43,780 nucleotides of DNA from Alphaproteobacteria bacterium (GTDB lineage Bacteria > Pseudomonadota > Alphaproteobacteria > UBA6615), in assembly GCA_965261975.1 (NCBI GenBank), contig CBDHEC010000031.1, positions 1 through 43,780 on the forward strand. The letters are read 5' to 3'. A program made the position numbers and the translations under genes. The notes beneath the pieces were generated by a model. That model was not told the DNA's origin. It saw nothing but the letters and a program-made list of their open reading frames with translations, and did no database searches. Positions within the stretch are counted from its first letter, which is position 1, and each line of letters begins with the position of its first letter. Of this stretch, positions 1-34,475 are shown piece by piece.

Positions 1-12
1 AACAACGATCAT
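1..12 (-). CDS. 5' end of probable HisH-like glutamine amidotransferase (WbuY-like), runs off the window
   Basis: ATG at 12 overlaps the hisF-like stop (ATGA) and reads M-I-V-V, a typical HisH N-terminus. Only 4 codons are visible. Confidence 0.45.
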
Positions 13-779
13 GACGCGGCCTCCGGACGGACGGGGATTCCCGCTTCGTGCATATGTCCCTTCAGGGTTTGCGGCGGACATTGTTCATAGTGGAAGAGGC
101 TGGCGCAGGCGACCGCGTCGAGCCCGTCCTCCACGACAGCGGCCACGACGTCCGCGGCCTCGCCCGCGCCGCCGGAGCCGATAACCGGCACACGCACTTT
201 CGCGCGCACCGCCCGGAACAGGTCATGATCGAAGCCCCGGCGCGTTCCTTCCGCATCGACCGAGGTGACGAGTATTTCACCCGCCCCCAGCTGCTCCGCT
301 TCGGCGACCCATTCCAGTACATCGACACCGGTGCGCTCGCGGCCATTGTCCGTAAGCACTTCCCAGCGTTCCTCGCTGCGCCGCTTTGCCTCGACCGACA
401 GGACGATGCATTGGGTGCCGAAGGTCTCGGCCGCTTCGCGCAGAAAGTCCGGCCGGGCAATGGCCGCCGTGTTGATGGCGACCTTGTCGGCGCCGGCTCG
501 AAGCGCCGCGACGATATCATCAATCGTCCGGATACCGCCGCCGACCGTCAGCGGTACAAATATGTCCCGCGCCGCATCTTCAACCACCGGCAGGATGTTG
601 TTTCGGCCGTACAACGACGCGACAGTGTCCATGTAAATGATCTCATCGGCCCCCTCGTCATAGTAGCGGCGCGCCATCGGGCCTGGCTGGCCGACGATGC
701 GCAGGCCCTCCAGGTGGATACCCTTGATGACGTTGGGGCCCTTGATATCGAGGCGGGCGATCAGACGTGGTGCCGGCAT
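9..779 (-). CDS. hisF: Imidazole glycerol phosphate synthase cyclase subunit paralogue (HisF/WbuZ-like, glycan-cluster type)
   Basis: RLIARLDIKG, ADEIIYMD, PLTVGGGIR, GADKVAINTAA, GAGEILVTSVDAEGT and SGGAG motifs. Start taken as ATG 779 (MPAPRL), 2 nt after the upstream stop. Confidence 0.88.
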   Translation of the reverse strand: MPAPRLIARLDIKGPNVIKGIHLEGLRIVGQPGPMARRYYDEGADEIIYMDTVASLYGRNNILPVVEDAARDIFVPLTVGGGIRTIDDIVAALRAGADKVAINTAAIARPDFLREAAETFGTQCIVLSVEAKRRSEERWEVLTDNGRERTGVDVLEWVAEAEQLGAGEILVTSVDAEGTRRGFDHDLFRAVRAKVRVPVIGSGGAGEAADVVAAVVEDGLDAVACASLFHYEQCPPQTLKGHMHEAGIPVRPEAAS

Positions 780-781
780 GA

Positions 782-1588
782 CTAGCTTTCGGACTGTGTT
801 GCGTTGCGCCGACGCCAGTCGACGACGAATTCGATGGCCGGCGCGGCGGAAAATATAACGCTGGCGGCCGAGCCGAGATATCCCGTCCGCGCAATTCCAG
901 CCTCGACCAGCGCGGCGACGCCGGGGATGAACCATTCGATCGGATACTCGATGTCACGATAGGCGACCCAGCGCCGTTCCCCGCTCTCGATGACGGGGGC
1001 TGCCTTGTCGATCTGCGGAACCTCGCCGATCAGATGCTGGGTCATGTGAAACAGCGATACCGTGTCGTGCGGCGCACCGATAAGCAGAACCTTGCCACCG
1101 AGCTCGACCAGCTTGCCGAGCGGCGACGACGGGCCGAAACGGTTGTCGTACGGGTGCTCCGCGACAAGCGCGTCCGCCGCAGCACCGAGTGCGGCAAAAG
1201 ATGATTGCGGGTGCGGCGAGCGCCGCACGCCGGGATAGCTGCGGAAATACTCGGCAACCTGGCCGATACCGCGTGTCGGCGTGCGCACCGGGTCGTAGGC
1301 CGGAACCTGTGCGCGAATCTCTTCGATACGGTCAGCCGGGACCGGCGGGTGTTGCCACTCCGCCGGGTCGGACAGGTCACCGGAAAAGGCCGGCATCATG
1401 ATCGTGCCGTCGGGCCCGACCGTCATGGTCAGCGCCTCGACCACGGCACGTGTGCCGCCGATAACGAGGCCGAGCGACTTCATCCCGGCATGGACACACG
1501 CGATATCGCCCGCCTCCAGTCCAAGTGCGCGCAAGCCCTCCGCAATGGACGCGGTGGTCGCGATTCCGGAGGCGACGGGCCCGGTCAT
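782..1588 (-). CDS. AAC(3)/YokD-family N-acyltransferase
   Basis: VHAGMKSLG, GTIMMPAF, TPTRGIGQVAEYFR, RSPHPQSSFAALG, SPLGKL and GKVLLIG motifs of the Antibiotic_NAT family. ATGA overlap with the upstream gene. Confidence 0.88.
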   Translation of the reverse strand: MTGPVASGIATTASIAEGLRALGLEAGDIACVHAGMKSLGLVIGGTRAVVEALTMTVGPDGTIMMPAFSGDLSDPAEWQHPPVPADRIEEIRAQVPAYDPVRTPTRGIGQVAEYFRSYPGVRRSPHPQSSFAALGAAADALVAEHPYDNRFGPSSPLGKLVELGGKVLLIGAPHDTVSLFHMTQHLIGEVPQIDKAAPVIESGERRWVAYRDIEYPIEWFIPGVAALVEAGIARTGYLGSAASVIFSAAPAIEFVVDWRRRNATQSES

Positions 1589-2541
1589 GACTTTGGCTGT
1601 TGCTCGCGAATTTCCGGCAATTCGCGCGCCAAGCGCACCCGATACTCCTCAACGAGATCATCGCGCACAAAAATCGCATCGCCGGAGTAATATTCGGAGC
1701 CGGGATAATGTTCCCATTCGGCGACCACCTCGTAGCCGGCATCGCGCATTGTCGCCGTCACCGATTCGCGGTTCTCATCGCCATTCAGCTCGATCGCCCA
1801 GGAACGCACCTGACGCTCGGCAAGCAGTCGTTTTGCACCAACCATGACATGGTTCTCGAAACCATCGACATCGATCTTCACATGCGTGGGTTCCGGCAAG
1901 CCGAGCGAATCGTGCAAGCCGTCGAGCGAGACGGTCATCAGCCATTGATGGCACAGCACCGGCTGGGTCTGGCGGCCACCGCGGTCGTAACTTTCCGGTT
2001 TGCCGACCGAGTTGCGATTGGCGCCGGGGATGGGCCCGTGATGCATGTAGAGTTTGCAGTGGTCCATCTTCTCGTCACAGCCGGCCTGGATCACCTCGAA
2101 GTCGTCAAGCTTGTCGGGGTCCTGCAGAACGATCGTCTTGAGAATGGTCTCGACACTCGGTGTGAACGGCTCGACGAACGCGACCTTGCAACCCCACAGA
2201 TGGTTGACGAGGAAGCCTTCGAAGCCGTTCGACGAACCGATGTCGTAGAACATCTCGCAATCGTCGATACGTCGCAGCCATGCGAACACCACATCACGAT
2301 CGCCCTGGCGGCCGAATTGGTAGTAGCGGCGAAACTGCCTGTAGGAACGCACAGGCACCGCGAGATCGCGTCCATCCAGCTGGCGCACCGCGACCCATTC
2401 GGCAATCGATCGGTCACGATAAAGTCGCCCCTTGTGGCGTTGGCGGAACAACACGTAGTCGCGCAGCTTGTGCCATTTCGGTTGCAGGAACCGTTTCGCG
2501 GGCGGCGGCAGTGCCCGGCTGAGAGTGTGAGCAATAGTCAT
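1585..2541 (-). CDS. FkbM-family SAM-dependent methyltransferase
   Basis: FYDIGSSNG SAM motif, FVEP, and PTHVKIDVDGFE FkbM signature. Start taken as ATG 2541 (ATGA overlap with the upstream stop). Confidence 0.85.
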   Translation of the reverse strand: MTIAHTLSRALPPPAKRFLQPKWHKLRDYVLFRQRHKGRLYRDRSIAEWVAVRQLDGRDLAVPVRSYRQFRRYYQFGRQGDRDVVFAWLRRIDDCEMFYDIGSSNGFEGFLVNHLWGCKVAFVEPFTPSVETILKTIVLQDPDKLDDFEVIQAGCDEKMDHCKLYMHHGPIPGANRNSVGKPESYDRGGRQTQPVLCHQWLMTVSLDGLHDSLGLPEPTHVKIDVDGFENHVMVGAKRLLAERQVRSWAIELNGDENRESVTATMRDAGYEVVAEWEHYPGSEYYSGDAIFVRDDLVEEYRVRLARELPEIREQQPKS

Positions 2542-3527
2542 TTGGACAGCATCGATTTGAGCTTCATGCGGAGGTGAGAACCAATAAAGGCGTTCTCGAT
2601 CAGGAAAGTGATCGGGCCAAACGCCCATGTCTTTTTTATCTTGTTCCACTTGTACCGGTCGAACGGCCGGACATGACTGCTGTCGGCCCCCAGCACACGC
2701 AGCTGACGCGATGACAGGCCACCAATGTCGCAGCTCCAGATGGGCAGCGGGGTAACCTGCTCGTCGCCGAAAATGTCGGTTCGGTAGTAATCGACAAGAA
2801 TCAGCGTGCGGTCGGCGCGCGACGGATGATCGGGGCCATGGAAGCCGCTGTCGTCAAAGAGGACGATATCGCCCTTGCGACCGTCAAGCCGCACCATCGT
2901 CGACAATATCTCGTCCTGCATCTCCTTCGGGTAACTGTTCAGCCGCTGGCCATGCGGCGCACCAAGCTTGTGTGTGCCGGTGCAGTAACTGAACGCACCT
3001 TCCGATGTGTCGTGCAGATAGATCGCACCGCCGACACCAAGCGGCAGCTTCATGGTTTCCTCGGTGATCGGCGAAACATGATCCGTACTCTTGCGCCAGC
3101 CCGCCGCGAAGTCCGAATGCATCGGGAAATAGACATAGCCCATGCCACGATCCGCCTTGAGATTGGTCTCGGCGAGGATGCATTTGCTGCCGAGATAGGC
3201 CTCCGTGATATCGAGCACCCGCTCGTTGGCGATCACAGGATAGACCGGCGCCCCCAGCAGGGTCGGCTGGATCACCTTCTTCTGATGATCGGCGCGGTAG
3301 TAGCCCCACACCCCGGCGACCGACGGCTGCCGAAGCATCTCTTCGGTACGCGCGGCGACGGCATCGACGGCAGCCTTCGGCAGACACCCACGCAGGATGA
3401 CGTAGCCGCGCTCACGCAGGTTGCGAACGGCGAGATCGATATCCGGATTCTCCCCTTCGATGATGTAGGAATCGGGAAGCGGCGCTTCGGATGCTTCACG
3501 AACAATCGTCTCTGGTTCAGTTGGCAT
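2538..3527 (-). CDS. Phytanoyl-CoA dioxygenase (PhyH)-family Fe(II)/2-oxoglutarate oxygenase
   Basis: GYVILRG N-terminal motif, HxD (MHSDF), GTHK, and KGDIVLFD..GFHG distal His. Start ATG 3527 follows an AAGGGG RBS. Confidence 0.8.
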   Translation of the reverse strand: MPTEPETIVREASEAPLPDSYIIEGENPDIDLAVRNLRERGYVILRGCLPKAAVDAVAARTEEMLRQPSVAGVWGYYRADHQKKVIQPTLLGAPVYPVIANERVLDITEAYLGSKCILAETNLKADRGMGYVYFPMHSDFAAGWRKSTDHVSPITEETMKLPLGVGGAIYLHDTSEGAFSYCTGTHKLGAPHGQRLNSYPKEMQDEILSTMVRLDGRKGDIVLFDDSGFHGPDHPSRADRTLILVDYYRTDIFGDEQVTPLPIWSCDIGGLSSRQLRVLGADSSHVRPFDRYKWNKIKKTWAFGPITFLIENAFIGSHLRMKLKSMLSK

Positions 3528-4992
3528 TGCGGACCCCTTCTTCAGCAGCGGTTTGTGACATGTCGTCGAACGTTGCCTGGAGACTGGAATACAAGGCGTC
3601 GCCAAGGTCTTCCGGCTTCTCGTATTCAGCCGGATCGATCGTCGTTTCATGCATCGCGGCAAGCATGAATTCGCCTTCGCGCGCAAAGGCGGCACGTTCC
3701 TCGTCGTTATATTCGATCAGCCGGTGCAGGACGTTACCGGTCTGCGCAAGATCGGTCGCGACATCGACATGCGGCAAATGGCCGAAATAGAGGCTCGGGC
3801 TGTAGGCCAGCACCGGCACACCAAACGCCGCCGCCTCGAAAGCACTGCGACCGAGCAGCGAAACGACCGCCCGGGATTTCCGGATCAAGGGAATGGCAAA
3901 CTCGCGCGGATCGATCAGCAGAACGTTCGGCATGGTGTCGAGCATTCGGTAGAAGCTTAGATCGCGGTAGCCGAGCGCCGGCACATGATCCTTGATCGCC
4001 AGATAGGTGCCAACGGGCAGTTCCTTGGCGACCTGATGGATCATCGCAGTCTGGTCGAAGAATTCCGGCGTCTGTCCCGACAGCAGGACTTCGGGCTCCA
4101 TCTGCAAAGGCATGAAGACAAAGGGATGGCCCGCCTGCGTCAGCTCATCGGCGGTCATGCTCGTGCGCACGAGATGACGGAAGACGCTGCGTCGCTTGAA
4201 ATGAAACTTGATGTGCCGCCAGGGGCTGTAGCCGAAGCGCGTGACCTTGTCATACCGGCGCAGGTGCCAATAGACCGTGCGGACAAGAATGAGAATCGTG
4301 GTTTTCAGCAACACCCGCAAACTGATGCCGGCGAAAAACTTGCGGCGGATATCCATGTGAAAGGGCGGCGGCTCCAGCATATCCGACGACAATGACTCGC
4401 CTGCGGCGCGCACGCGCTGATGCGCGGCCAGCATCCACTCACCATTCACCTTCATGCCGTCTTTCCAGATCATCCGGTCGTGCAGGAAGGAATAACCGAG
4501 GCAGCGGCTGGGTATCTTCCGACCGCGCGCAACATCGCAGACGACGCGTCGGCCGTTCATGGCAAGGGTGACCCCGTGACGCTCCATGATTTCTTCGACC
4601 GCGTGATACATCGCGACGAACTGACGAATCCATTCGCGATAGGGCAGCGAGGTTTCGATCTTGGTGTAGGGGAATGACGTGCTGCCAGTGAAATACAGGC
4701 GACGGTCGGCGAGGTTGTAGTGAAACACCGTATCGAATCGACGCTCGATTTCACGCGCCGCGGGAATCAGATCCTCGTCATCGGGCGGCAGATGGTCGAG
4801 CATCTCCGAGGTGGCATACACCGCTTCGAACATGCCGGTGTCGAGCAGCGGCTTGATGTCTTGCGCGAAGCGCACGAGGCCGATCAGTCGCGCGCCCTGC
4901 TGTTCTTTGAGCATGCGCAGCATCGGCATCATGAACTTGCGCTCGTCGCCCGTTCCCTCGAACAGAATGCATTGCGTGGGGAGTGAACTCAT
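3517..4992 (-). CDS. Capsule polysaccharide biosynthesis protein (Capsule_synth/KpsS-like glycosyltransferase)
   Basis: C-terminal FVFMPLQMEPE, LAIKDHVP, LIRKSRAVVS and AFEAAAFGVPV pattern of the KpsS/KpsC-related family. Confidence 0.7.
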   Translation of the reverse strand: MSSLPTQCILFEGTGDERKFMMPMLRMLKEQQGARLIGLVRFAQDIKPLLDTGMFEAVYATSEMLDHLPPDDEDLIPAAREIERRFDTVFHYNLADRRLYFTGSTSFPYTKIETSLPYREWIRQFVAMYHAVEEIMERHGVTLAMNGRRVVCDVARGRKIPSRCLGYSFLHDRMIWKDGMKVNGEWMLAAHQRVRAAGESLSSDMLEPPPFHMDIRRKFFAGISLRVLLKTTILILVRTVYWHLRRYDKVTRFGYSPWRHIKFHFKRRSVFRHLVRTSMTADELTQAGHPFVFMPLQMEPEVLLSGQTPEFFDQTAMIHQVAKELPVGTYLAIKDHVPALGYRDLSFYRMLDTMPNVLLIDPREFAIPLIRKSRAVVSLLGRSAFEAAAFGVPVLAYSPSLYFGHLPHVDVATDLAQTGNVLHRLIEYNDEERAAFAREGEFMLAAMHETTIDPAEYEKPEDLGDALYSSLQATFDDMSQTAAEEGVRNAN

Positions 4993-5037
4993 GCGTTTGT
5001 CGATCTATTCTGTTTCACTGGTTGGTGCCGGCATCGG

Positions 5038-6696
5038 TCAGGCGACTTCCTGCGTGGAAGATGTCGTGGTGCGCGTTTCGCGCAGTGCGAAAATCTCGGC
5101 CCGCTCGGCCCGGAGATGTGCGGTCAGCTTCTCGATCACGGTTTTCTGCGCCGGGTCGTCGACGATGTTCAGCAGTTCTCGAGGGTCGGCCTGCTTGTCA
5201 TAGAGCTGTTCGACGGCCAGCCGATCGCCATCCAGCGTCGCCATGATCTTGTGGGTGGGCGAGGTCACGGTGAAGTAGATCTTGCGGCGAGCTATATCGG
5301 CGTTCCCGCTGCCGCAACTCTCCGAGACGATGGCCGGCCTGCCACCGCGAAAGATGCTGACGCCCTTGAAGCTGTCATGGGCGGGTACCGCGAGTGAGTC
5401 GAGGAACGACGCCGTCATGCCCATGCTGTCGGTCATGCCGGAATCGGCCGGGTCCGCCTGCGTGTTGGCCAGGATCAACGGAACCTCGATATCCTCGTAA
5501 TGGGTGCGTGAGCCGATTCCCGATTTCTTGCGGGGGCTTTCGGCGTAGTAGAGACCATGGTCGCCGGTCGCGAGTATGACGGTGTCGTCGAGCTGGCCGG
5601 TGCGCTCGAGCGTCGTCAGCACTTTGCCGAGCAGGCCATCGACATACATCAGCGCGGTGTCGTAGAGCCAGCGCCGGCGCGTCTGGCCACGCAGGCGGGC
5701 AACCATCCAGCGCGGCAAGTAACGCAAACGACCAAGAAGGTGCAACGGCCGGCTGATCGATCGGCAGTCATGCACGTCCATCATGTGCATATAGATGAAC
5801 CAGCGATCATCCCTGTTCTCTTCGATGACCCGGCACAGCGGCGCGACGATGTCGCCGAAGACGACAGGAAAGTGCGACATGGCGAGAAAAGGCCAGAGCG
5901 TCTGCGACGCGACCCAGCGGCGCGTCCGCCATTTGACGGATTCGAGGGCACGGTGCCGGAACAGGCGCAGGCCTCCCGGGTTTCGCTCGCCGAGAAAGCG
6001 CCAATATATGCCCGGCGCGATACCCATAACCTTGTCGAAGACAATGTCGGGATTGTGTTCCAGCAAATCCCGCTCGGCCCTGCAGCCCTCAGCAACCCGG
6101 CTGTTGATACGCCTGAGCTTCTCGGGCCAGAGCGACTTGTCGTGATGTTCGATCATCTCGACGAGGCCGTCGAGAAACAGAGCGAAGTCGCCCTTCACCT
6201 GCGCGACATCGGCCGTCGTGTCCGCGGCGCGAAGCGCTTCGACCTGAAAACGCACGGTCCGGCCGACCCGTTGTTCGAGCAGCAGCCGGAAGTCGGATGT
6301 CGTGCGCACCGTATCAAAACCTCGGCCATAGCCGGTCGCGGCGCCGAGCTGGTTGCAACTCGCCAGCAAATGCGTTCGCAGGCCGGCTTGCTGCAGGGAT
6401 TCGGCGAAGCTCTGCGGGCGCAGCCGGATACCGTTGTCATAGCCGCCATGGTCGAGCGGGTAGGTCTGCGAGAATATCGCCGGCGTGACGAACTGCGTCG
6501 ACTGCGCATTCGTGACCACCCGGCGCACGAAGCCGCGGTCGATGATGCGCGCAAGGTTCGGAAACATGAACTCGCGCGCCGGGGCGTTCGACAAGGTGTC
6601 GAAGCGCAGCGCGTCGATCAGCAGGAACAGGCCGTTGCGCGGCACGGCACCTGCGGCCGGCGCTGTCATCTCGACATCGTTGCGCGTTTCGCTCAT
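5038..6696 (-). CDS. Sulfatase-like hydrolase/transferase (alkaline phosphatase superfamily) with Thr at the nucleophile position
   Basis: LLLIDALRFD, STQFVTPAIFSQTYPLDHG, YMHMMDVHD, YDTALMYVD, ATGDHG, EVPLI and LYD..ADPREL.N motifs. Start ATG 6696 overlaps the pyk stop. Confidence 0.8.
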   Translation of the reverse strand: MSETRNDVEMTAPAAGAVPRNGLFLLIDALRFDTLSNAPAREFMFPNLARIIDRGFVRRVVTNAQSTQFVTPAIFSQTYPLDHGGYDNGIRLRPQSFAESLQQAGLRTHLLASCNQLGAATGYGRGFDTVRTTSDFRLLLEQRVGRTVRFQVEALRAADTTADVAQVKGDFALFLDGLVEMIEHHDKSLWPEKLRRINSRVAEGCRAERDLLEHNPDIVFDKVMGIAPGIYWRFLGERNPGGLRLFRHRALESVKWRTRRWVASQTLWPFLAMSHFPVVFGDIVAPLCRVIEENRDDRWFIYMHMMDVHDCRSISRPLHLLGRLRYLPRWMVARLRGQTRRRWLYDTALMYVDGLLGKVLTTLERTGQLDDTVILATGDHGLYYAESPRKKSGIGSRTHYEDIEVPLILANTQADPADSGMTDSMGMTASFLDSLAVPAHDSFKGVSIFRGGRPAIVSESCGSGNADIARRKIYFTVTSPTHKIMATLDGDRLAVEQLYDKQADPRELLNIVDDPAQKTVIEKLTAHLRAERAEIFALRETRTTTSSTQEVA

Positions 6697-8126
6697 TGCG
6701 CCGCGCGCTCCCAGCCCAGGCTGGCAACCAGCTCGGATATCCGGTTGACCTGCAGGCTGTTCATGCGATTGCCCGGATAGGGATAGGTCACGCCGGTCGT
6801 CAGCACGAGATCCGTCTCGTCGAGGAGGCCGCGCTGCCACAGCATCTCAAGCACCAGCCCGAAATGGTCCATGCTCGATTTCGGGAACGGTACGCTGCTG
6901 TGCACACCGAGCGTGCCGGCGATCAGGTTGAAGCTGCGTGCCGCAGCGGCATCGTCGCTCACCGCGATAATCGACTGACTCGGCCGCCCGGCCGCGATCA
7001 TGCGGGCCGCGAATCCCGAGCGTGTAATCGCCACGATCCTGGTGATCGGCAAGGCGCGACACATCATCGGGATAACCCGCGACATCACCTCGGGAACCGT
7101 ATCCCCGATGTCGGGCGCTTCGGCGTCGAGAAGATTCTGCGCGTGGACTTCCGAGGCTTCGGAAACCTCGCGCATCAGTCGGACCGCTTCTTCGGGGAAC
7201 TCTCCGATCGCGGTTTCGCCCGAGAGCATGGTCGCCGCACAACCGTCAAGCACCGCGTTTGAGATGTCGCTGACCTCGGCCTTCGTCGGGAAGGAATTCT
7301 GAATCATGGTGTGCAGCATCTCGGTCGCGATGATCACCGGCCGACCGTGCCGGCGGGCCGCCTCGATTATCTGCTTCTGGCGCAACGCCACGTCATGCAG
7401 GCTGGTTTCCACGGAGAGATCGCCGCGATCGACCATGATGGCGTCGGCGGCCTCGGCAATTTCGTGCACATTGTCCATGCCGCCCTGGTTCTCGACCTTG
7501 GCGACGATACGTGGCGATGTCTCACCGATCAGATCACGGAACTGGCGAATTTGGTCGGCCGATTCGACAAAACTCAGGCCGATAAAGTCGACACCCGTCT
7601 CACGTGCGAAGGCGATCATCGCCTCGTCGCGCGGCGTGACCGACGGGGTGTTCAGCTTGACGAACGGCACGTTAATGCCCTTGCGGCTGCGCAGCTGGCC
7701 GGCCGTCTCCGCACGGCAAGTGATGTCGCGCCCCTCGACCCGGGTCACCGTGAAGCGGAGCGTGCCGTCATCGGCCAGAACGATATGGCCGACCTCGAGG
7801 TCGGTATGCAGGTCGGGATAATTGACCGGCACCTTGGCGCTGCCGTCGTGGTCCGGCTCGGTTGTCAGGACGATTTCGTCGCCCAGCTCGAAGCTCGGCT
7901 CGTGGGCCAGTTGCGTGGTGCGAATCTTCCGGCCCGGGATGTCGAGCAGGATCGGTACATCCGGCAGCACCCGGCGCACTTCGGTGATCGCGTTCCTGTG
8001 CCAGTCCAGGTCCGCATGCGAGCCATTCAGCCGCGCCACATTCATGCCGGCATCACGCAATGCGAGCAGCGCGGGCTCGGACAGGCTGCGCGGGCCGATC
8101 GTGCATACGATACGGGTTCGATCCAT
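6693..8126 (-). CDS. pyk: Pyruvate kinase family protein with divergent active-site motifs
   Basis: RTRIVCTIGP, GMNVARLN.SH, KGINVP, IVAKVEN, RGDL, MLSGETA and a C-terminal alpha/beta domain. Start ATG 8126. Confidence 0.85.
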   Translation of the reverse strand: MDRTRIVCTIGPRSLSEPALLALRDAGMNVARLNGSHADLDWHRNAITEVRRVLPDVPILLDIPGRKIRTTQLAHEPSFELGDEIVLTTEPDHDGSAKVPVNYPDLHTDLEVGHIVLADDGTLRFTVTRVEGRDITCRAETAGQLRSRKGINVPFVKLNTPSVTPRDEAMIAFARETGVDFIGLSFVESADQIRQFRDLIGETSPRIVAKVENQGGMDNVHEIAEAADAIMVDRGDLSVETSLHDVALRQKQIIEAARRHGRPVIIATEMLHTMIQNSFPTKAEVSDISNAVLDGCAATMLSGETAIGEFPEEAVRLMREVSEASEVHAQNLLDAEAPDIGDTVPEVMSRVIPMMCRALPITRIVAITRSGFAARMIAAGRPSQSIIAVSDDAAAARSFNLIAGTLGVHSSVPFPKSSMDHFGLVLEMLWQRGLLDETDLVLTTGVTYPYPGNRMNSLQVNRISELVASLGWERAAQ

Positions 8127-8130
8127 GAGG

Positions 8131-9207
8131 TCAGTCCTCAACAAACAAGGGAAGACCCTCGATCGCCGCAACGATCTCGGGTCGCATATATCGACTGTCG
8201 GGTTGTTGGCCATCCACCAAAACACGGCGCATCTCTGTACCGCTGATTTCATGCGTCACATCGCTGCCCTGGTGCGGACAGGTCTGTTCGGTGACGATCC
8301 CGTCGCATACGGCGCAATAATAGGGTCCGTGTAACCGCATGATCTCGATGCCGAGATCGCCATCGAAGCGGCGCGTCAGTTCGTGCGCCTCATACCGGCC
8401 GTACCAGTCGCCGACCCCGGCATGGTCGCGCCCGACAATGAAATGTGTGCAGCCGTAGTTGCGCCGGATCAGCGCATGAAAAACGGCCTCGCGCGGCCCG
8501 GCATAGCGCATCACGGTAGACAGGATACCAAGCACCACCTTGTCGTCCGGCAGGAACCGGCCGACGAGCGCGCGATAACCCTCCATGACGACCTGTGGCG
8601 TGTAGTCGCCGCCGCGCTTGTGCCCGACCAGCGGTTGCACGAACAGGCCGTCGGCATGCTCCAGGGCGACGCGTTGCAGATATTCGTGCGCCCGGTGCGG
8701 CACGTTGCGCGTCTGGAAGCCGACGACGCGTTGCCAGCCGCGCTCGGCGAAGATCGCGCGTGTTTCATCCGGGGTCAGCTCATCTGCCGAAATATCGAAC
8801 CGGGCGCGCTTGAGAAGGCGCACGGCGCCGCCAACAAAGACCGGCTTCTGACGATAGAAAAAAGCCACGCCAGGATGGCTGTCATCGTCGGTGCCATAGA
8901 TCAGGCGCGCCGCGGCCGGCCTGTCGCAGGCATAGAAGTCACGCGGATCAAGTCCACCAACGACCTCGCCGTCAAAGGTCAGGTCGACGCCCGCGCTGGC
9001 CTGCAGGCGGTCGGCGTCCGCCTGGCTGACGTCGAGCACAACCGGCAGCGGAAACACCGCGCCGGACGGCAGACGCATCGTGTCGACAACGCTGCGAAAG
9101 CTGGCCTCGTCCATGAAACCGTCGAGCGGCGCAAACGCACCAAGACCGATCTTCTCAAGCTCGAGATACTGGTTGCGGTCGAGCTCCAGCTGGGTGCGGC
9201 CGGTCAC
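8131..9207 (-). CDS. sat: Sulfate adenylyltransferase (ATP sulfurylase, Sat type)
   Basis: FAPLDGFM, FQTRNVPHRAHE, MRYAGPREAVFHALIRRNYGCTHFIVGRDHAG and CxxC..CPH zinc site. GTG start at 9207 in a GTGA overlap. Confidence 0.92.
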   Translation of the reverse strand: MTGRTQLELDRNQYLELEKIGLGAFAPLDGFMDEASFRSVVDTMRLPSGAVFPLPVVLDVSQADADRLQASAGVDLTFDGEVVGGLDPRDFYACDRPAAARLIYGTDDDSHPGVAFFYRQKPVFVGGAVRLLKRARFDISADELTPDETRAIFAERGWQRVVGFQTRNVPHRAHEYLQRVALEHADGLFVQPLVGHKRGGDYTPQVVMEGYRALVGRFLPDDKVVLGILSTVMRYAGPREAVFHALIRRNYGCTHFIVGRDHAGVGDWYGRYEAHELTRRFDGDLGIEIMRLHGPYYCAVCDGIVTEQTCPHQGSDVTHEISGTEMRRVLVDGQQPDSRYMRPEIVAAIEGLPLFVED

Positions 9208-9740
9208 TGGGCAGCCTCCAGATCGAGCGCGGCAGCCAGTTCGGGTATCCGGCGGACGATCCGCATCGCGATATCCGACGGCGGTTCGACCCGCGCGGCA
9301 TCGATCACCATGTCGGGCTGCTGTGGCGCATGCCACGGTATATCGACACCGACAACGTTCGGGGTCTGTCCGCTATCGGCGCCCGCATAAAGTCCTTTCG
9401 AATCCCGCTCCCGCAACAGATCCATCGGCGCATTAACATAGACTTCGAAATATCCCGGCAGGTTGTCGCGGTTCCACGCCAACAGGTCCGGGTGCGCATA
9501 GAGCGCGGCAACCACGACGGTTTGCCCCTGGCGCGCGAGCCAGCCCGACAGCCGCTGAAGGCGGCCGATCTGCTCCCGGCGAGCCGGTTCTTCATATCCA
9601 AGGCTGGCCCCGAACAGCTCGCGTATAACGTCGCCGTCGACAAGCACAAGCTCCGGAATGTGCGGTTTCAGCGTTTCAACCATCGCCTCGGCGATCGTCG
9701 TCTTGCCGGCGCCCGACAGGCCTGTAAGCCAAATAACCAT
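9204..9740 (-). CDS. cysC: Adenylyl-sulfate kinase family protein
   Basis: VIWLTGLSGAGKTT P-loop, DGD..R, EVYV and RDSKGLY. Start is ATG 9740 or TTG 9764. Confidence 0.85.
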   Translation of the reverse strand: MVIWLTGLSGAGKTTIAEAMVETLKPHIPELVLVDGDVIRELFGASLGYEEPARREQIGRLQRLSGWLARQGQTVVVAALYAHPDLLAWNRDNLPGYFEVYVNAPMDLLRERDSKGLYAGADSGQTPNVVGVDIPWHAPQQPDMVIDAARVEPPSDIAMRIVRRIPELAAALDLEAAQ

Positions 9741-9764
9741 CCTGGACGTTCCCGTCAGCTCCAA

Positions 9765-10997
9765 TCAAACACCGAAAGCGGTGTCACGAGACAGCCGCCA
9801 ACGCAGCCAACTTCCCGTTGCCAGCGACGTGATAATCGATGCCAGTACAAAAGCGACGAACAATGAATCGTCGATAATACCGGTCGCATGCGCGACGCTC
9901 GCCAACACAATGCCCGGGCCGCCCCGCGCATTCATGGTGATTCCGAAATCGAAGGCGCGCGACGCCGATGCGCGTGCGAGCCGCGCCGCCAGCGCAACGC
10001 TCGAGATCTTGACCAGCGACGACAGCACGATGAAGCCGACAACCGGCATCAGCGAAAAGTCGCCGGGCAGATCGAGCTTGAGCCCGACCAGCGCGAAATA
10101 GATCGGCACAAAGAACCAGATCGCCATCTCGGAAATCCGACGCCGGGTCGCGGCAAGCTGCGTGCTCTGAAAACGGCCGATGACCAACCCGGCGAGCAGG
10201 GCGCCGAATACGAGATTGATCTCGAACAGGCTGGCGACGGCGACCAGGGCGAGGCAGAACAGCAACAGGTAGCTCATGAGCATCGGCTCGCTGGCTTCGC
10301 TGATTGTTGCCCGCCCGACCGAGCGCAACAGGGCCGGCAGAAACAGGACAGACGCGACGGCAAAAACCAGCGTTGCGCCCACGACACCACCAATATCGGC
10401 GATCGCAACATGGGCTTCCTGCTGGATTGCCGTGGCCACGGCAAGCATCACCCAGAGCACGAGGTCCTGCGTCGCCGCCGCGACCAGCGTCAGTTTGGCG
10501 AAATTGCTGTCCATCATGTTGAGGTCGATGAATATTCGCGAAATCACCGGGATCGACGTCACCGACGTGGCGATCGCCACAACCAGGGTAAAGGCCAGCG
10601 GGTCCGCCGCGGCGGAATTGCCCAGCCAGGGGGCCGCCAGCCAACCGGCGACAAAGGGCGGCCCGAGACCGCCGGCGACGAGCGCCAGTACGAGCACGCG
10701 GTCGCGCGGACCCAGCTTCGGCGTGATGCTGAAGCCGGCCGTGAACATCAGCATGATCATGCCGAGCCAGTAGAATACCGACAGCACCACCGCCTGTTCC
10801 GCGAAACCCTGAAACAACCATGCGTGCAGGCCCGGCGCGACTAAACCGAGGACCGAAGGTCCCAGGAAGAGACCACCACAGATCTCGCCGACAACGCGCG
10901 GCATCCCGAACCGCGAGAACAGATGCCCGCCCGCCAGCGCCGCGCACAGCAACAGCGCGACGGACAGCAGGAATTGCGAGAGCTCCGAATCACTCAC
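9765..10997 (-). CDS. Cation:proton antiporter (CPA2/KefB-like), transmembrane domain only
   Basis: PRVVGEICGGLFLGPSVLG, TSIPVISRI, FGALLAG, FVPIYFALVGL and MNARG motifs, with many hydrophobic segments. Confidence 0.85.
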   Translation of the reverse strand: MSDSELSQFLLSVALLLCAALAGGHLFSRFGMPRVVGEICGGLFLGPSVLGLVAPGLHAWLFQGFAEQAVVLSVFYWLGMIMLMFTAGFSITPKLGPRDRVLVLALVAGGLGPPFVAGWLAAPWLGNSAAADPLAFTLVVAIATSVTSIPVISRIFIDLNMMDSNFAKLTLVAAATQDLVLWVMLAVATAIQQEAHVAIADIGGVVGATLVFAVASVLFLPALLRSVGRATISEASEPMLMSYLLLFCLALVAVASLFEINLVFGALLAGLVIGRFQSTQLAATRRRISEMAIWFFVPIYFALVGLKLDLPGDFSLMPVVGFIVLSSLVKISSVALAARLARASASRAFDFGITMNARGGPGIVLASVAHATGIIDDSLFVAFVLASIITSLATGSWLRWRLSRDTAFGV

Positions 10998-12199
10998 GGG
11001 CGCCTGCGGTGCCCGACATTGTTGAACGAGCCTGACCGGTCACGAAAGCGGGACGGGACATCAGTCCGGCACCACCCCATAAAGCAACTGTTGCGGGTCG
11101 GGCAGGTTCGCGAGAAGTTCCGCGATCCGCGGCCCCGATGTGCCATCACCATAAGGCGAGCCGCCCGAGTGACGGACCGGAGCGGCTTCGATCCGATTGA
11201 GCGCGGCCGCAATCGAGCCCGCATCATTGGGAACGTCCCTCACATTGTCGCCGCGCAAGCGACCGGCCTGTCGTTCGCCGACATTGATGGCCGGCAAGCC
11301 GAAGAGACCGGCCTCGATGATCCCCGATGACGAATTCCCCAGCATCAACGTCGCGTGGCGCAGTGCAGATGCATACTTGCTCGGGCCGAGGGTATCGACG
11401 AAGCAGGCATTCGGTTCCGCGGCGCAAAAGGCCTCAACGTCGCGACGCAACTGTGCTCCGCCGGGATCGCTGTTGGGTGCGGTAAACAGGACGCGGCCCG
11501 GATGCGCACGCAACGCCTCGAGCACATTGCGCATCGGCGCCAGCGGATCTGTTGAATTGGTCTCGGGGTGCACCGTGACGAGCCGAAACCCAGCATCGTC
11601 ATCGCCGGAACATGGCAACCCCACCGCGCGGGCAAAGGAAGGCGCATCGACCGCGGGCGCCGCAAGCAACGTGTCCAGGGTCGGCGAGCCGGTCACGTTA
11701 ATGCGCCAGTCGTCCTCGCCCATCTCCTGGAGAATCGTCCGCGCATGTTGAGACGACACACAGTGCATATGCGAAAGCTTGCTGAGCGCATGACGAATGC
11801 GGTCGTCGACAGCGCCGTCCGTGATCTCGCCACCATGCACATGGACGAGCGGCAGGTTGAACGGCAGGCTGGCCAGCGCGGCGGGGAGCATGTCCAGACG
11901 GTCACCCACGACGAGCATGACATCGGGTACCGTCTGCTCGATCACCTCGCCGGTCGCCTTGCTGATCAATGCCATGGCTTCGGCGGCGGCGGCGGCCCGC
12001 CGCCGCCCATATCGGCACCGGCAACATGCACCTTGGCCGCAGCGGGCATGCCCTCGGCGGCCGCCGCGCCCGGCGCGAGATGCATACCCGTCAGCAGGAT
12101 GTGAAGTTCGACCTCCGGTCGCCCGGCAAGGGACTGCCAGATCGGCGCAAGGATACCGACATCAGATCGGCCAGCAGAAACGGAAAGGATACGTGTCAT
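10994..12199 (-). pseudogene. neuC: UDP-N-acetylglucosamine 2-epimerase, hydrolysing (NeuC/LegG), frameshifted (true lesion or sequencing error)
   Basis: N-terminus (RSDVGIL, LTGMHL) is in 11966-12199. The body (VGDR, HVHGGE, GAVDDRIRHA, VTVHPET, GNSSSGIIEA, INVGERQ.GR, YGDG) is in 11061-11975. Frameshift near 11995, and probably a second near 11075. Confidence 0.85.
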
Positions 12200-13219
12200 T
12201 CAGATACTACCGATTCTGGTGTGAGGTCGCCGTCGGACAACGGCGCGTCGGCTTCGAGTGCCCGGTTCAGCAGGCAACCGACAGGAGAGCGCGAGGGCGG
12301 CAGACCATCGGCAGGCCGCTTTAAGACAACATCTTTCTCGCCCAGTACGCTGCCCGCCGGCAGTGCGTGGCGCATATGCCAGGAACGGCGCACAAGGCGG
12401 GCGGTCTCGATCTCTTCGGGCACTGGTTGTTTCGTGCCGTCGCCGAGCGACATCTCGACATCGCGCAAGCGCGCTATCAACGCGCCCAGTTCACCGGGCT
12501 CAAGCGAAGCACGGTGATCGGGCCCCGGCAGCGTGCGATCGAGTGTGAAATGCTTTTCGATCATCGTCGCGCCCAGCGCCACGGCGGCGATCGCGACATG
12601 GTCACCAAGACTGTGATCCGAATAACCGACCGGCAAACCGAAATATTGTTTCATGGTGGCGATGGCCGTGAGGTTGAGGCTTTCGGGGGGCGCGGGATAG
12701 AGCCGACGTGCAATGCAGAATCGTGATGTCGTCGCAGCCATGCTGGCGGAGCACCGCGACAGCATCATCGACCTCGGCCAGGGTCGCCATACCGGTCGAC
12801 AGGATGACCGGCAGGCCGCGCTCGGCAAACCGGACCAGCGCCGGCGTATTGGTCATTTCGCCCGAGGCGATCTTGAGCCTGTCCATGCCAAGATCGATCA
12901 GCGCATCAAGCTGCGCCAGATCGAAAACCGAAGCCATGAAGCCGACCTTCGCCTCGCGGCACGCCGCTGCGAGCGTTGCGAAATCATCAAGCGACAATTC
13001 GAGATCGCGCAGCAGCGCATCCTGGCTGGATTCGCCGGTGTTCGTCTGCTGGTACGACGCAGTACGCGCATCGCGCACGACCAGCGCATCGGTCGAGAAG
13101 GCCTGGAACTTCACATAGTCGGCACCGGCTTCGGCGGCCACGGACACCATCTCCAGCGCACGGGAAAGCTCGCCGTTATGGTTGACGCCTGCTTCGGCTA
13201 TGAAAATCGGTGCGGTCAA
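12196..13219 (-). pseudogene. neuB: N-acetylneuraminate/legionaminate synthase (NeuB/LegI) with C-terminal SAF domain, frameshifted
   Basis: IAEAGVNHNG, VKFQ, KIASGE, ILSTGMA and LHCTS are in one frame. YPAP, GYSDHSLG, IEKHFTLDR and GPDHRASL are in another. One extra base at 12703-12704 (TCG G CTC TAT). Confidence 0.9.
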
Positions 13220-13229
13220 AACGGCGGCT

Positions 13230-13793
13230 TCAACGGGGATAACGCGTCAATGACGGCACCAGCGTGTCGGCGGGCACGGTGGCGCCGGGCAGTACGACGG
13301 CACCGGCACCAACCATCGCGCAGCTGCCGATATGAACGGCCCCAAGAACAACGGCGCCCGGTGCAATATGAGCGCCGGCTTCGATGACCGCGTCATGCTC
13401 GACAATCGCGCCTGTATTGACAATCACGGCCTCGGAAATCTGCGCCCCCGCATTGACCACGGCACCAGCCAGCACGATGGCGCCGTCAGCGAGAACCACA
13501 TCCGCGGCGACGAAGGCACGGCTATGGACGAGCGAAATCGGCGTTACGGGTCTTGTCGCGTAGCGCCCGAACAGTTCGTGCCGTCGCCGCAAAACCTCGG
13601 GATCGGCGCCACCGAGCCCCATCACGAACCCCGACGCGGCAGCGGGCAGCGGGTCGTCATCGCCGAACAGCGGAACATCAAGCCAATCGGGCTTGTCCAT
13701 GGCGGCGCAGGCAACCACCGCGTGCCCGTTGTCCATGGCGGCCTCGGTCACCGGGCGGGCATGTCCGCCGGCGCCGACGAGAAACAGGTTCAT
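13230..13793 (-). CDS. NeuD/PglD/LegH-type sugar acetyltransferase (hexapeptide repeats)
   Basis: GAGGHAR, VHSRA, IVNTGAIVEHD and HIAPG left-handed beta-helix repeats. Confidence 0.88.
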   Translation of the reverse strand: MNLFLVGAGGHARPVTEAAMDNGHAVVACAAMDKPDWLDVPLFGDDDPLPAAASGFVMGLGGADPEVLRRRHELFGRYATRPVTPISLVHSRAFVAADVVLADGAIVLAGAVVNAGAQISEAVIVNTGAIVEHDAVIEAGAHIAPGAVVLGAVHIGSCAMVGAGAVVLPGATVPADTLVPSLTRYPR

Positions 13794-14915
13794 GCCCCGG
13801 CTCCCGGCCGATGGTCGTGCCAGGCCAATACCGTCTCGATCACGCGCTGCTGGTCGTGTTCATGCAACGAGGACGAGCTCGGCAGGGAGACGACCGTGCC
13901 CGACAGTGCCATTGAAACCCCTTGCAGCGCGCGCGGCGCGTCCTGCCAGGGGGCCTGTTGCGACAAGGATCGCCAGAAGAGGCGCGCCTCGATACCGGCT
14001 GCATCACAGGACGCGACAAGATCGCGCGCCGTTTCTTCGTCCGGCACCCGGATCGAATAGAGCCAGCAAACACTGTCGCAATGCGCCGGGCGCGGCATCG
14101 ACGCAACCGCCGCGAGATCGGCAAAGGCGGCGTCGTAGCGCGCGGCGATGTCGCGGCGGGCGGCAACCATCTCATCGATCCGCTCGATCTGGGCAAGCCC
14201 CCAACGCGGCGTTGATGTTGGTCATCCGGTAGTTGAAGCCGATCATGTCGTGCACATAGTCACTGCCCGGGCGCGCCTGGGTCGACATGTGACGCACCTG
14301 CTCGGCCAAGGCTTCGTCGTCGGTGACCAGCATGCCGCCACCGCCCGCGGTGACCGTCTTGTTTCCGTTGAACGAGAAAATCGCAGCCGCCCCCCCGCTG
14401 CCGCTTGGCTTGCCGCGGTAACCGGCGCCGATCGCCCCTGCCGCATCCTCGATCAGCGGTACCCCATGAGGCGCACAGGCCGCCTCCAGCGCATCAAGGT
14501 CAGCGGTATGGCCGAGAGGATCGACGGCGATCACGGCACGGATCGTCGGATCGGCGGCCAGTGTTTCTGCCACCAGCGCCGGGTCGAGGGCCCAGTCGGA
14601 CTCTCTGACATCCACGAAAGATGCCGTTGCCCCGGCATGCGAAATTGCATTCGCCGAAGCGGCGAAGGTCCAGTCGGGCACGATCACACGGTCACCGGTG
14701 CGCACGCCAACGGCCAGAAGCGCGAGATGTAGCGCTGCCGTACCATTAACGGTCGCCACGGCATGGGCGCGACCGGTGAGGCGCGCCATCGCGGATTCTA
14801 ACGCCGTGACTTCAGGCCCGGCCGATGACACCCAGTTGTCGCGCACGCAACCAAGCAGCAAATCGGCTTCGCGGCCCCGCAGATCGGGCACACTAAGAGG
14901 AATACGTTCAGGCAT
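13790..14915 (-). pseudogene. legC: DegT/DnrJ/EryC1/StrS aminotransferase (LegC-like), frameshifted
   Basis: WVSSAG, NGTAALHLAL, IEDAAGAIG, FSFNGNKTVTAGGGG and GFNYRMTNINAALG. A G5 run (C at 14198-14202) shifts the frame; removing one G restores LAQIERIDEMVAARR and the C-terminus (WLY, SLPSS). Confidence 0.85.
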
Positions 14916-14937
14916 GTCGGTTTAATTGCTACCGCAG

Positions 14938-14962
14938 CCCGGGTGAATCGGATTCCCCCGGG
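14938..14962. promoter_or_regulatory. Palindromic operator-like site with two symmetric GANTC sites
   Basis: CCCGGGTGAATC-G-GATTCCCCCGGG: 12-bp arms with 11/12 match, 22 bp upstream of the legC start. Confidence 0.45.
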
Positions 14963-15004
14963 ATTTTCGCCCCTTACAACGGCGAATCGCAGCACTGAAT
15001 CAAC

Positions 15005-15032
15005 ACACTATCTCCATTTTATGACCCGTCAA
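15005..15032 (-). promoter_or_regulatory. Putative sigma70 promoter of the glycan operon
   Basis: Minus strand TTGACG-N16-TAGTGT in an AT-rich intergenic stretch, about 90 nt upstream of legC. Confidence 0.4.
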
Positions 15033-15363
15033 GCTTTTTTGTTCGTGGCGTGAACAGTATATCAGGCCTCGTTTTTTCGGGGCCGTGATTGGATTCTCGC
15101 AATCTGCGCGGCCCGCCGGGCCGATCCTCCGATCGGCATCGCACACGCGGCGCAGACCGGGAGCAAATCAGACAGGCTGCGACACACTTCGTTGTTGCCA
15201 ATCCCTACGATGAACGTGCACTAAGACGCCTCCACTGCAATCCGGGGCACCTCCCAAGCAGGGAAAAGCGTCCGTGACCCGGCCACCGGTCGCGGAAAGC
15301 ACCCCGCCTCGCACACAGCTGAAACCAGCCCGAGAATACCGACAGGAAGGCAAGTCAGACACG

Positions 15364-25527: not shown

Positions 25528-25561
25528 GGTCAGGCCGCATGATTTCAGCCTGGCTTCTGGC

Positions 25562-26860: not shown

Positions 26861-26875
26861 GGACCGCACACCTCA

Positions 26876-34465: not shown

Positions 34466-34475
34466 GGAGACCGAC

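Follow-up and report, generated by a model that had tools for sequence, protein, structure and literature searches.

A block of five contiguous genes at positions 5038-10997 of a 43,780-nt stretch of DNA from a marine alphaproteobacterium (assembly GCA_965261975.1, contig CBDHEC010000031.1, positions 1 to 43,780; hereafter the window) appears to combine sulfate activation with an atypical member of the sulfatase fold. The genes encode a transporter, a kinase resembling adenosine 5'-phosphosulfate (APS) kinases, an ATP sulfurylase (Sat), a pyruvate kinase (PK) paralog, and a sulfatase-fold protein, and the locus around them is, to judge from its gene families, a surface-glycan locus for a nonulosonic acid (NulO) of the legionaminic or pseudaminic type. 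The reading that we favor, tentatively and with somewhat less than even confidence, is that the block is an operon for the supply of 3'-phosphoadenosine 5'-phosphosulfate (PAPS), and that the sulfatase-fold enzyme would use the product of the kinase to modify the NulO or the glycan that bears it.

Within this reading we infer the catalytic steps of the sulfatase-fold enzyme, its acceptor, and the role of PK as follows. Sat would convert ATP and sulfate to APS, and the divergent kinase would phosphorylate the 3'-OH of the APS ribose, yielding PAPS. PK would use phosphoenolpyruvate (PEP) to return the ADP from the kinase to ATP, thereby pulling an unfavorable activation. The sulfatase-fold enzyme would move the sulfuryl group from the kinase product to a hydroxyl of the NulO or of the NulO-bearing glycan, possibly by way of a covalent enzyme intermediate at Thr67, as in enzymes of the alkaline phosphatase superfamily, and the transporter, of the CPA2 type, would be accessory. 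A first-pass annotation, made from the sequence alone, had proposed that PAPS is made locally and that the sulfatase-fold enzyme acts as a new type of sulfotransferase. That proposal is now the leading reading, strengthened by conserved synteny, by the scarcity of sulfotransferases nearby, and by the presence of a Sulfotransfer_1 protein in the corresponding slot of other loci; the transfer step is its conjectural part.

Gene content and packing of the block

The source assembly comprises 3.03 Mb in 59 contigs, is 94.6% complete, and includes the window as its contig C31; in a scan of GTDB species genomes the closest named relatives were metagenome-assembled genomes (MAGs) of Alphaproteobacteria. 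We named gene families by comparing Pfam and NCBIfam profile scores with curated cut-offs. Five contiguous and intact open reading frames (ORFs) on the minus strand occupy positions 5038-10997 fully (10997..5038) and form part of a co-directional gene string of approximately 15 kb. Read along that strand, they encode the 410-aa CPA2-type transporter (Na_H_Exchanger, PF00999; 9765..10997), the divergent, CysC-like P-loop kinase (PF01583; 9204..9764), Sat with a PUA-like N-terminal domain (PF01747 and PF14306; 8131..9207), the 477-aa PK paralog (TIGR01064; 6693..8126), and the 552-aa sulfatase-fold protein (P0001; PF00884; 5038..6696). The first-pass annotation had placed five contiguous genes between neuC and a glycosyltransferase gene, and both the block and its flanks, considered below, are as it described.

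The genes are packed as in an operon. The stop codon of the transporter gene directly abuts the start of the kinase gene; ORF coordinates and translation show that the kinase and Sat genes overlap in a GTGA, Sat starting with GTG; 4 nt separate Sat from PK; and the PK and sulfatase-fold genes overlap in an ATGA, the latter starting with ATG. For Sat, PK and the sulfatase-fold gene, the start of the longest ORF lies too far upstream and over-extends the N-terminus, and the true start of the kinase is probably an ATG near 9740. A promoter and terminator scan of positions 1-15400 returned fewer sites than did shuffled sequences, and hence we drew no operon boundaries from it.

The sulfatase-fold protein

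The sulfatase-fold protein matches PF00884 with 78.8 bits, most strongly over its C-terminal half; a Pfam search with the N-terminal 135 residues alone returned only PF00884 (26.3 bits) and was no help in placing the nucleophile. Of 1.84 billion representatives searched by profile, 266 representative clusters matched at E<=1e-30, and the homologs listed, at least 120, carry no annotation more specific than "sulfatase-like hydrolase/transferase" or "arylsulfatase A-like". The gene was found in five of 400 genomes in one sample of the class.

Residues invariant in 16 of 16 diverse members include D28, T67, H304, D307, H309, D310, D379 and H380 and ten Arg, and the C/S-x-P-x-R (formylglycine) motif is absent from all 16 of the aligned members. 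Unlike this protein, a sulfatase encoded in the same genome carries the motif as CGPSR. Alignment of the two by hhalign (probability 98.2) places D28 and D379-H380 at the CDQLR and SDHGD motifs of the template, which are metal-site positions, and pairs the invariant Val70 with the formylglycine Cys, so that Thr67 falls three residues ahead of the nucleophile column. The AF2 model (pLDDT 81.7) is a single soluble domain, composed of a sulfatase core with a helical insert at approximately residues 136-293, and it is weak at residues 61-90 (pLDDT 55-67). The N-terminal sequence shows neither a signal-like nor a membrane segment, and the protein is predicted to be cytoplasmic. It is not a normal sulfatase, and we regard it as a candidate group transferase. 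The label "Thr-type" given to it by the first-pass annotation is plausible as far as the invariance of T67 goes, and Thr67 is a candidate catalytic residue, V70 being the residue that hhalign places in the nucleophile column.

Foldseek neighbors of the model are S1 sulfatases, choline sulfatase and phosphonate monoester hydrolases (PMH), with probability 1.00 and TM-scores of 0.43-0.53, and a profile search of the PDB concurs (S1 sulfatases and phosphonate monoester hydrolases, E 3e-16 to 1e-12). That these closest solved relatives are all hydrolases gives weight to the main rival explanation, which we consider rather unlikely: that the protein is itself a hydrolase, either a sulfatase or phosphodiesterase that edits the NulO glycan or its precursor, or a CysQ analog, acting as a 3'-nucleotidase to remove the 3',5'-bisphosphate nucleotide that group transfer leaves behind. 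PAPS would then be consumed by tetratricopeptide repeat (TPR) sulfotransferases encoded elsewhere or by an unrecognized transferase. The formylglycine motif that known sulfatases require is missing, however, and cleavage of a newly made sulfate ester in the cytoplasm would be futile.

Conservation of the arrangement in related loci

We collected 109 loci containing the sulfatase-fold gene, 29 from GTDB species genomes and 80 from metagenomes, which collapsed to 90 at 97% nucleotide identity. Neighbors were counted by tblastn. The ends of contigs cut many of the loci, so that counts among the 90 are lower bounds, and we therefore also report the 34 well-flanked loci that have at least 5 kb on both sides. 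The kinase of the module was the most frequent partner (45/90 loci; 26/34 well-flanked), followed by Sat (33/90; 21/34) and PK (31/90; 20/34), and the glycan genes DegT (32/90; 22/34), NeuB (30/90; 20/34) and a KpsS-like gene (30/90; 21/34) occurred at similar frequencies. A nucleotidyltransferase gene was present in 21 of 90 (11 of 34 well-flanked), an Abhydrolase_7 gene in 10 (6), an iron-containing alcohol dehydrogenase (Fe-ADH) gene in 8 (3), and a PEP mutase gene in 7 (4). The joint occurrence of the block genes in glycan loci, on which the first-pass annotation had staked its proposal, is thus borne out for the kinase, Sat and PK, the CPA2 transporter being found in only 8 of the 90.

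The order kinase-Sat-PK was contiguous in 25 of the 26 loci that hold all three genes. In 17 of the 31 loci with PK, that gene lay upstream of the sulfatase-fold gene on its strand and at most 200 nt away, and in 17 of the 45 loci with the kinase, the latter lay within 250 nt of the sulfatase-fold gene; the PK-adjacent loci span hosts labeled Alphaproteobacteria, Gammaproteobacteria and Nitrospirales, in addition to metagenomes. Given the constancy of the trio and the position of PK just upstream, the five-gene arrangement is not due to chance. The prominence of the 3'-kinase as the constant partner (45/90) would also suit a hydrolase that clears the nucleotide by-product.

Two genomes separate the components. 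In G002 and G003 the sulfatase-fold gene stands beside DegT-NeuB-NeuC, and the trio lies on another contig, next to genes for a luciferase-like monooxygenase and a flavin reductase and away from glycan genes. When the two are separated, then, the sulfatase-fold gene tracks the NulO genes and not the trio, which argues for a role linked to the acceptor and speaks against the hydrolase alternative.

Classical sulfotransferases are scarce in these surroundings. Four sulfotransferase queries matched one of the 109 loci (by tblastn, with limited sensitivity), and none was counted beside the gene in the 90 non-redundant loci. A Pfam search of 27 genomes for sulfotransferases on the same contig and at most 10 kb away turned up two weak matches, one of 25.1 bits in G013, which falls under the cut-off, and one of 30.6 bits in G023. 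No match to Sulfotransfer_3 or Sulfotransfer_1 came from seven of these genomes, four of them with the full module; the genomes are incomplete, and the four therefore count weakly against a hydrolase dependent on sulfotransferases elsewhere. Sulfotransfer_2 and Sulfotransfer_4 likewise gave no match in the seven, but the controls for these two were silent in every genome too, and the two results carry no information.

Three further arrangements were noted among the relatives. The region of L028 (G022:C90:2491-10740) has three tandem sulfatase-fold paralogs of 33-37% identity to the query protein beside Sat, PK and kinase genes. A gene for an Abhydrolase_7-type alpha/beta hydrolase is found beside the pair of kinase and sulfatase-fold genes in L019, L022, L078, L081, L108, L120, L154 and others, and in G005 an Abhydrolase_7-type gene follows kinase-PK with no Sat between them.

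The kinase-Sat-PK trio on its own

In the 400-genome sample of the class, 13 genomes encode a module-type kinase (at least 47% identity). The sulfatase-fold gene was present in 3 of these 13 and in 2 of the 387 kinase-negative genomes (Fisher p = 2.6e-4, related genomes not being independent). The ten kinase-positive genomes without the sulfatase-fold gene all hold kinase-Sat-PK in the same order, and glycan genes (NeuB, AsnB, DegT or KpsS-like) accompany the trio in at least seven of these ten loci, NeuB in three. One such locus, L163, has the order CPA2-kinase-Sat-PK-KpsS-like. In two others a protein of approximately 470-505 aa with a C-terminal Sulfotransfer_1 domain is encoded directly after PK (L171:2135-3649 and L172:6111-7514). 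Because the order is kept in the absence of the sulfatase-fold gene, and because a sulfotransferase gene follows PK in two loci, the trio appears to be a PAPS-supply module in its own right. The sulfatase-fold gene can take the slot that is held elsewhere by a sulfotransferase, a further point against its being a hydrolase.

Kinase, pyruvate kinase and transporter

The kinase matches PF01583 with 110.8 bits and exceeds the cut-off of PRK05541 (152 against 127), and it falls under that of the CysC equivalog model TIGR00455 (119.4 against 138.7). It is the only APS_kinase match in the genome. A tree of 28 rows groups the kinases of these loci in one 21-row clade (support 96/90), apart from the kinase domains of CysNC type. 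The motifs ENIRR, ISP, FTG and PYE, which we take to be the substrate-side motifs of canonical APS kinases, are kept in six CysNC-type kinases of the same alignment and are replaced by.QI.R, ALY, vVG and PWh in the module kinases from Sat contexts (n=25); the kinases of Sat and phosphonate contexts carry the same altered motifs. We assume that the substrate is APS, on the basis of the overlap with Sat and the fixed order of the trio.

Module PKs likewise stand apart from their housekeeping counterparts. The PK of the block scores 403 against TIGR01064 (cut-off 306.4), and a second PK, with a higher score, is encoded on contig C18. Nine of 12 other genomes with a module-type PK similarly have a second, higher-scoring PK; two of the remaining three are small genomes that show the module PK alone, and one shows only fragments. 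Against 11 housekeeping PKs the module PK of the window shows 30-35% identity, compared with 45-96% against 11 module PKs. The motifs RLNxSH, D..G.K.R, K.E, RGDL, ATxML and MLSGE are common to 12 module and 11 housekeeping PKs, such that the motifs of the barrel domain are retained and the C-terminal domain has diverged. We regard the module PK as an extra copy, not the glycolytic enzyme of the cell, and its fixed company indicates that it belongs to sulfate activation.

The transporter matches PF00999 with 139 bits and the CPA2 model TIGR00932 with 119 bits, under the cut-off of 238, and no C-terminal regulatory domain was detected in its 410 residues by Pfam or NCBIfam. It accompanies the trio in a minority of loci, being near the sulfatase-fold gene in 6 of the 34 well-flanked ones, and it also adjoins trios that lack the sulfatase-fold gene (L163, L170). 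We considered whether it is needed as the sole sulfate importer and rejected this, as a SulP-family transporter is encoded elsewhere in the genome; a search of the genome for CysT/W gave no match above the cut-off.

According to the first-pass annotation, the transporter, kinase, PK and sulfatase-fold protein all deviate from housekeeping motifs. This holds for the kinase, for PK, and for the sulfatase-fold protein with its missing C/S-x-P-x-R; the transporter was judged on its scores alone.

Sat, sulfate assimilation and other users of PAPS

Sat matches PF01747 with 274.9 bits and PF14306 (PUA_2) with 123 bits, and it passes both curated cut-offs for ATP sulfurylases, NF003166 (432; cut-off 387) and TIGR00339 (335; cut-off 322.95). 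By these scores it is a canonical ATP sulfurylase of the homo-oligomeric type, as had been claimed from the sequence at first pass. Searches of this 94.6%-complete assembly turned up no other ATP sulfurylase and nothing of CysD type. An assimilatory sulfite reductase and CysH are encoded elsewhere, and hence the Sat of the operon almost certainly doubles as the housekeeping enzyme of sulfate assimilation. The CysH sequence contains CC...CxxC and ECGIH. The CC...CxxC signature is that of APS reductases, and with a CysH of this type assimilation needs Sat and not the kinase.

These observations bear on a second rival explanation, namely that the adjacency is incidental: a housekeeping sulfate-activation operon would have come to lie in a variable glycan island, and the sulfatase-fold gene would encode a NulO enzyme unrelated to sulfate, such as a phosphomutase or phosphatase. 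Such an account would be consistent with the block holding the only Sat and the only APS kinase found in the genome, with the location of CysH and sulfite reductase elsewhere, with the trio of G002 and G003 lying beside monooxygenase and flavin reductase genes, and with the 11 of 34 well-flanked loci in which the sulfatase-fold gene occurs without Sat or phosphonate genes. It is improbable in light of the ATGA and GTGA translational coupling through the block, the recurrence of PK just upstream in diverse hosts (17/31 loci), the phyletic enrichment of the sulfatase-fold gene with the kinase (3/13 against 2/387), and the glycan genes that at least seven of ten trio-only loci also carry; moreover, a CysH of APS type leaves the kinase unneeded for assimilation. 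The first-pass annotation had itself allowed that the genes might be the only sat, cysC and pyk copies of the genome, acting as housekeeping enzymes; Sat and the kinase are indeed sole copies, and PK is an additional paralog.

A PAP phosphatase, CysQ, is encoded elsewhere in the genome (269.7 bits; cut-off 228.8). A CysQ-like role of the sulfatase-fold protein is therefore not required, which lowers the standing of the hydrolase alternative; that alternative draws support, in turn, from three classical sulfotransferases in the genome, proteins of TPR-Sulfotransfer_3 architecture encoded on other contigs. Among the block genes, including the sulfatase-fold gene, Pfam at E<=0.01 gave no match to a sulfotransferase family, and no classical sulfotransferase was found by Pfam in the window as a whole, in agreement with the first-pass annotation.

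Phosphonate-type relatives and the nature of the donor

In several relatives the pair of kinase and sulfatase-fold genes is joined by a nucleotidyltransferase and an Fe-ADH (L029, L124, L093, L101, L147, L126 and L020/L092). PEP mutase is also present in L029, L124, L093 and L020/L092, sometimes fused to the nucleotidyltransferase, and a thiamine pyrophosphate (TPP) decarboxylase in L029, L124 and L093. In a MAG labeled Nitrospirales, a single ORF encodes an Fe-ADH::APS-kinase fusion (L020:3967-5661, the same as L092:7203-8834); a PEP mutase::NTP-transferase fusion precedes this ORF, and a sulfatase-fold gene follows it. L009, L010 and L083 contain both PEP mutase-NTP transferase-Ppd and Sat-PK, the kinase being present in L009 and L010 and not detected in L083. 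A gap of approximately 1.4 kb separates the nucleotidyltransferase from Fe-ADH in L020 (2535-3977), L101 (approximately 6823-8277), L147 (approximately 2541-3953) and L126 (approximately 3307-4722), and in L020 it is filled by a 481-aa ORF without a Pfam match.

Three explanations fit these mixed contexts: the sulfatase-fold enzyme may tolerate both sulfuryl and phosphonyl groups; it may do something that is common to both; or the phosphonate genes may decorate the same glycan independently. The closest solved relatives include enzymes called catalytically promiscuous in the titles of their PDB entries. A broader reading, which we consider possible though unlikely, is that the protein represents a new cytoplasmic class of group transferase that would use 3'-phosphorylated nucleotide donors, either PAPS or 3'-phospho-CMP-(hydroxyethyl)phosphonate, and would esterify NulOs with sulfate or phosphonate. 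Loci with Sat and PK would supply PAPS as the donor, and those with PEP mutase, a cytidylyltransferase and Fe-ADH the phosphonate one.

Context does not sort on the tree of the family, and this is one of several observations that weigh against a PAPS-dependent transferase acting on the NulO. Some sulfatase-fold relatives sit with phosphonate genes in place of Sat. On the 77-row sulfatase-fold tree donor context is unclustered: the seven phosphonate rows need seven changes, and for the Sat rows, where shuffling gave 15.6 changes on average, the tree needs 13, a number that 64 of the 500 shuffles also attained. The simplest reading is therefore not a strictly sulfate-specific enzyme, and the clearing of a by-product common to PAPS and 3'-phospho-CMP donors, as a hydrolase might do, would explain the pattern. 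Neither Sat nor phosphonate genes occur in 11 of the 34 well-flanked loci. The kinase is without several residues that are conserved in canonical APS kinases, its substrate being assumed from the adjacency of Sat. The only Sat of the genome lies in the operon, which probably feeds assimilation as well; the three TPR-Sulfotransfer_3 proteins could consume PAPS; and the trio occurs without the sulfatase-fold gene in 10 of the 13 kinase-positive genomes sampled, so that the supply of PAPS does not depend on that gene. Within the protein, it is Val70 and not Thr67 that aligns with the formylglycine Cys, in a segment of low local pLDDT (55-67). Finally, the literature that we searched records no enzyme of the sulfatase fold as a PAPS-dependent transferase.

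An alternative route had also been proposed at first pass, in which a small acid is phosphorylated or otherwise activated by the PK-like enzyme, then joined to a nucleotide by a Sat-like nucleotidyltransferase and 3'-phosphorylated by the kinase, before transfer of the group to the glycan. Its logic parallels the O-methyl phosphoramidate (MeOPN) pathway, in which Cj1415-Cj1418 make CDP-phosphoramidate 3'-phosphate (PMC11800397). The divergence of the kinase and the non-sulfate donors suggested by phosphonate-type relatives near the gene pair also agree with it. We nevertheless consider this route very improbable: Sat exceeds two curated Sat cut-offs, PK keeps the motifs common to housekeeping PKs, the trio also occurs with classical PAPS sulfotransferases encoded directly downstream, and the block contains no extra gene for a small-acid pathway. 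The analogy itself fares better in the relatives, which pair the kinase and sulfatase-fold genes with PEP mutase, a nucleotidyltransferase and Fe-ADH, than in the window, which lacks a cytidylyltransferase.

The surrounding glycan locus

Upstream of the block on the minus strand, genes for NulO synthesis occupy 11061..14915 and encode a DegT aminotransferase, a hexapeptide N-acetyltransferase, NeuB and NeuC (TIGR03568, 265 bits), as named by Pfam and NCBIfam. Beyond them are AsnB, a Wzy_C/O-antigen-ligase-type protein, a GT4 glycosyltransferase, and WbpL-like and WbpM-like genes.

Compared with a 90%-identical locus, L005, the sequence has a 1-nt indel in each of NeuC (approximately 11997), NeuB (approximately 12703) and DegT (approximately 14198), with the result that these ORFs are split or truncated. 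Contigs of related populations from three sequencing runs are without the indels. In the likely source run, which covers 85% of the stretch, contigs are broken or missing at all three sites, and depth is approximately 8 over 5038-11250 and at most 2 across 11.3-14.2 kb. Because relatives lack the indels and the sites are broken or uncovered, the frameshifts are probably assembly artifacts rather than pseudogenes, and the fall in depth suggests strain heterogeneity over the NulO synthesis genes. In the same run the five-gene block is recovered on a single contig with zero differences.

Immediately downstream of the block is a gene for a divergent 491-aa protein resembling the Capsule_synth (KpsS/Gtr59-like) family (3517..4992, minus strand). 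No Pfam or NCBIfam model matched it, and a PDB sequence search gave chance-level matches alone; comparison of Atlas features with PF05159 clusters gave a score of 0.98, and PF05159 is carried by the weakest of its listed homologs. The Capsule_synth family (PF05159) has been tied to NulO transfer where it lies beside NulO synthesis modules (PMC4487303), and the 491-aa protein is probably the NulO glycosyltransferase.

Genes for a PhyH-type dioxygenase, an FkbM methyltransferase, an AAC(3)-like N-acetyltransferase and a HisF-like protein follow in the same NulO locus (window 9-3695). PhyH was found near the sulfatase-fold gene in 15 of the 90 related loci and FkbM in 10, which suggests additional tailoring of the NulO. 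In the other direction, the glycan island gives way to ordinary housekeeping genes (23941-32749), which encode PurH, an MFS/ATG22-like transporter, an EamA transporter, and a 1624-aa NAD-specific glutamate dehydrogenase. Long ORFs without a Pfam match were called at 33458-34564, 35195-38356, 38296-40512, 40595-41962 and 42352-43473; the DNA is GC-rich, and some of these may be spurious frames.

Implications

Decoration with sulfate or phosphonate alters the charge of bacterial surface glycans, their recognition by phage, and their turnover, and marine organic matter of high molecular weight is rich in both substituents. Where bacteria are known to sulfate glycans, they do so with classical PAPS sulfotransferases. 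The sulfatase-fold protein would constitute a new enzyme class only upon demonstration of transfer, and the locus would otherwise be a variant of glycan sulfation. If the proposed transfer is correct, the class would transfer sulfuryl and perhaps also phosphonyl groups; it would account for the stray genes called "adenylylsulfate kinase" that turn up in clusters for phosphonates and glycans; and it would predict unreported sulfated or phosphonylated legionaminic and pseudaminic acids in marine bacteria. Should the broader reading with two kinds of donor hold, the donor logic of PAPS and MeOPN would extend to a promiscuous enzyme of S and P transfer. The fixed trio would represent a natural, PEP-driven supply of PAPS that is relevant to enzymatic PAPS regeneration. 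If the enzyme is merely a hydrolase, the locus would be an ordinary sulfated-glycan cluster with unusual accessories. In the main text of the literature that we searched, the sulfatase-fold family, the kinase-Sat-PK trio, and sulfated or phosphonylated legionaminic or pseudaminic acid are not described.

Comparison with known systems

The nearest parallels in gene content are the sulfated polysaccharide clusters of Cobetia marina KMM 1449 and Vibrio sp. KMM 8419, which contain a second or dedicated set of sulfate-activation genes; the Cobetia set comprises cysNC, cysD, cysQ and a sulfate permease, and known sulfated-capsule clusters combine cysDNC with classical sulfotransferases (PMC11641403, PMC11766843). 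As in those clusters, the window has a sulfate-activation set inside a polysaccharide cluster and a transporter gene alongside. It differs in having a Sat-type sulfurylase and a stand-alone divergent kinase, where they have CysDN/CysC; in a PK paralog as the fixed third member; in a sulfatase-fold protein in place of a classical sulfotransferase; and in a transporter of CPA2 rather than SulP type.

In the MeOPN pathway of C. jejuni, an APS-kinase-like enzyme 3'-phosphorylates a nucleotide-activated group, which is then moved to a surface glycan (PMC11800397, PMC3907429). Relatives of our locus similarly join the kinase with cytidylyltransferase-like genes. In contrast to that pathway (Cj1415-Cj1418, Cj1421/Cj1422), the window has Sat, which makes an adenylyl donor, and lacks a cytidylyltransferase, a glutamine kinase and an amidohydrolase, and its candidate transferase has a sulfatase fold; nucleotidyltransferases were confined to the phosphonate-type relatives. 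Phosphonyl-tailoring (Pnt) pathways for phosphonates of the cell surface, with PEP mutase, Ppd and PntC cytidylyltransferases, are approached by the related loci, at least 7 of 90, in which PEP mutase lies by the pair of kinase and sulfatase-fold genes, whereas the window itself has no phosphonate genes. Campylobacter ppm-ppd neighborhoods are flanked by an adenylsulfate kinase gene in one account (PMC8942020), and published Pnt neighborhoods contain LicD-like phosphotransferases or glycosyltransferases, the sulfatase-fold family going undescribed in the available text of that source (PMC6697681).

At the level of the protein, S1 sulfatases and PMH (among them 4upl, 4upi, 2vqr, 2w8s and the choline sulfatase 6fny) share the fold and the positions of the metal-site Asp and Asp-His with the sulfatase-fold protein, which in turn lacks C/S-x-P-x-R, has an extra helical insert of approximately 150 residues, and shows no evident signal peptide; its genomic context is biosynthetic rather than catabolic. 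Thr-nucleophile transferases of the alkaline phosphatase superfamily, of the EptA/MCR and LtaS type, have a membrane anchor and a periplasmic catalytic domain and use lipid donors. The protein of this locus differs from them in its absence of hydrophobic N-terminal segments and in its AF2 model, which is a single soluble domain.

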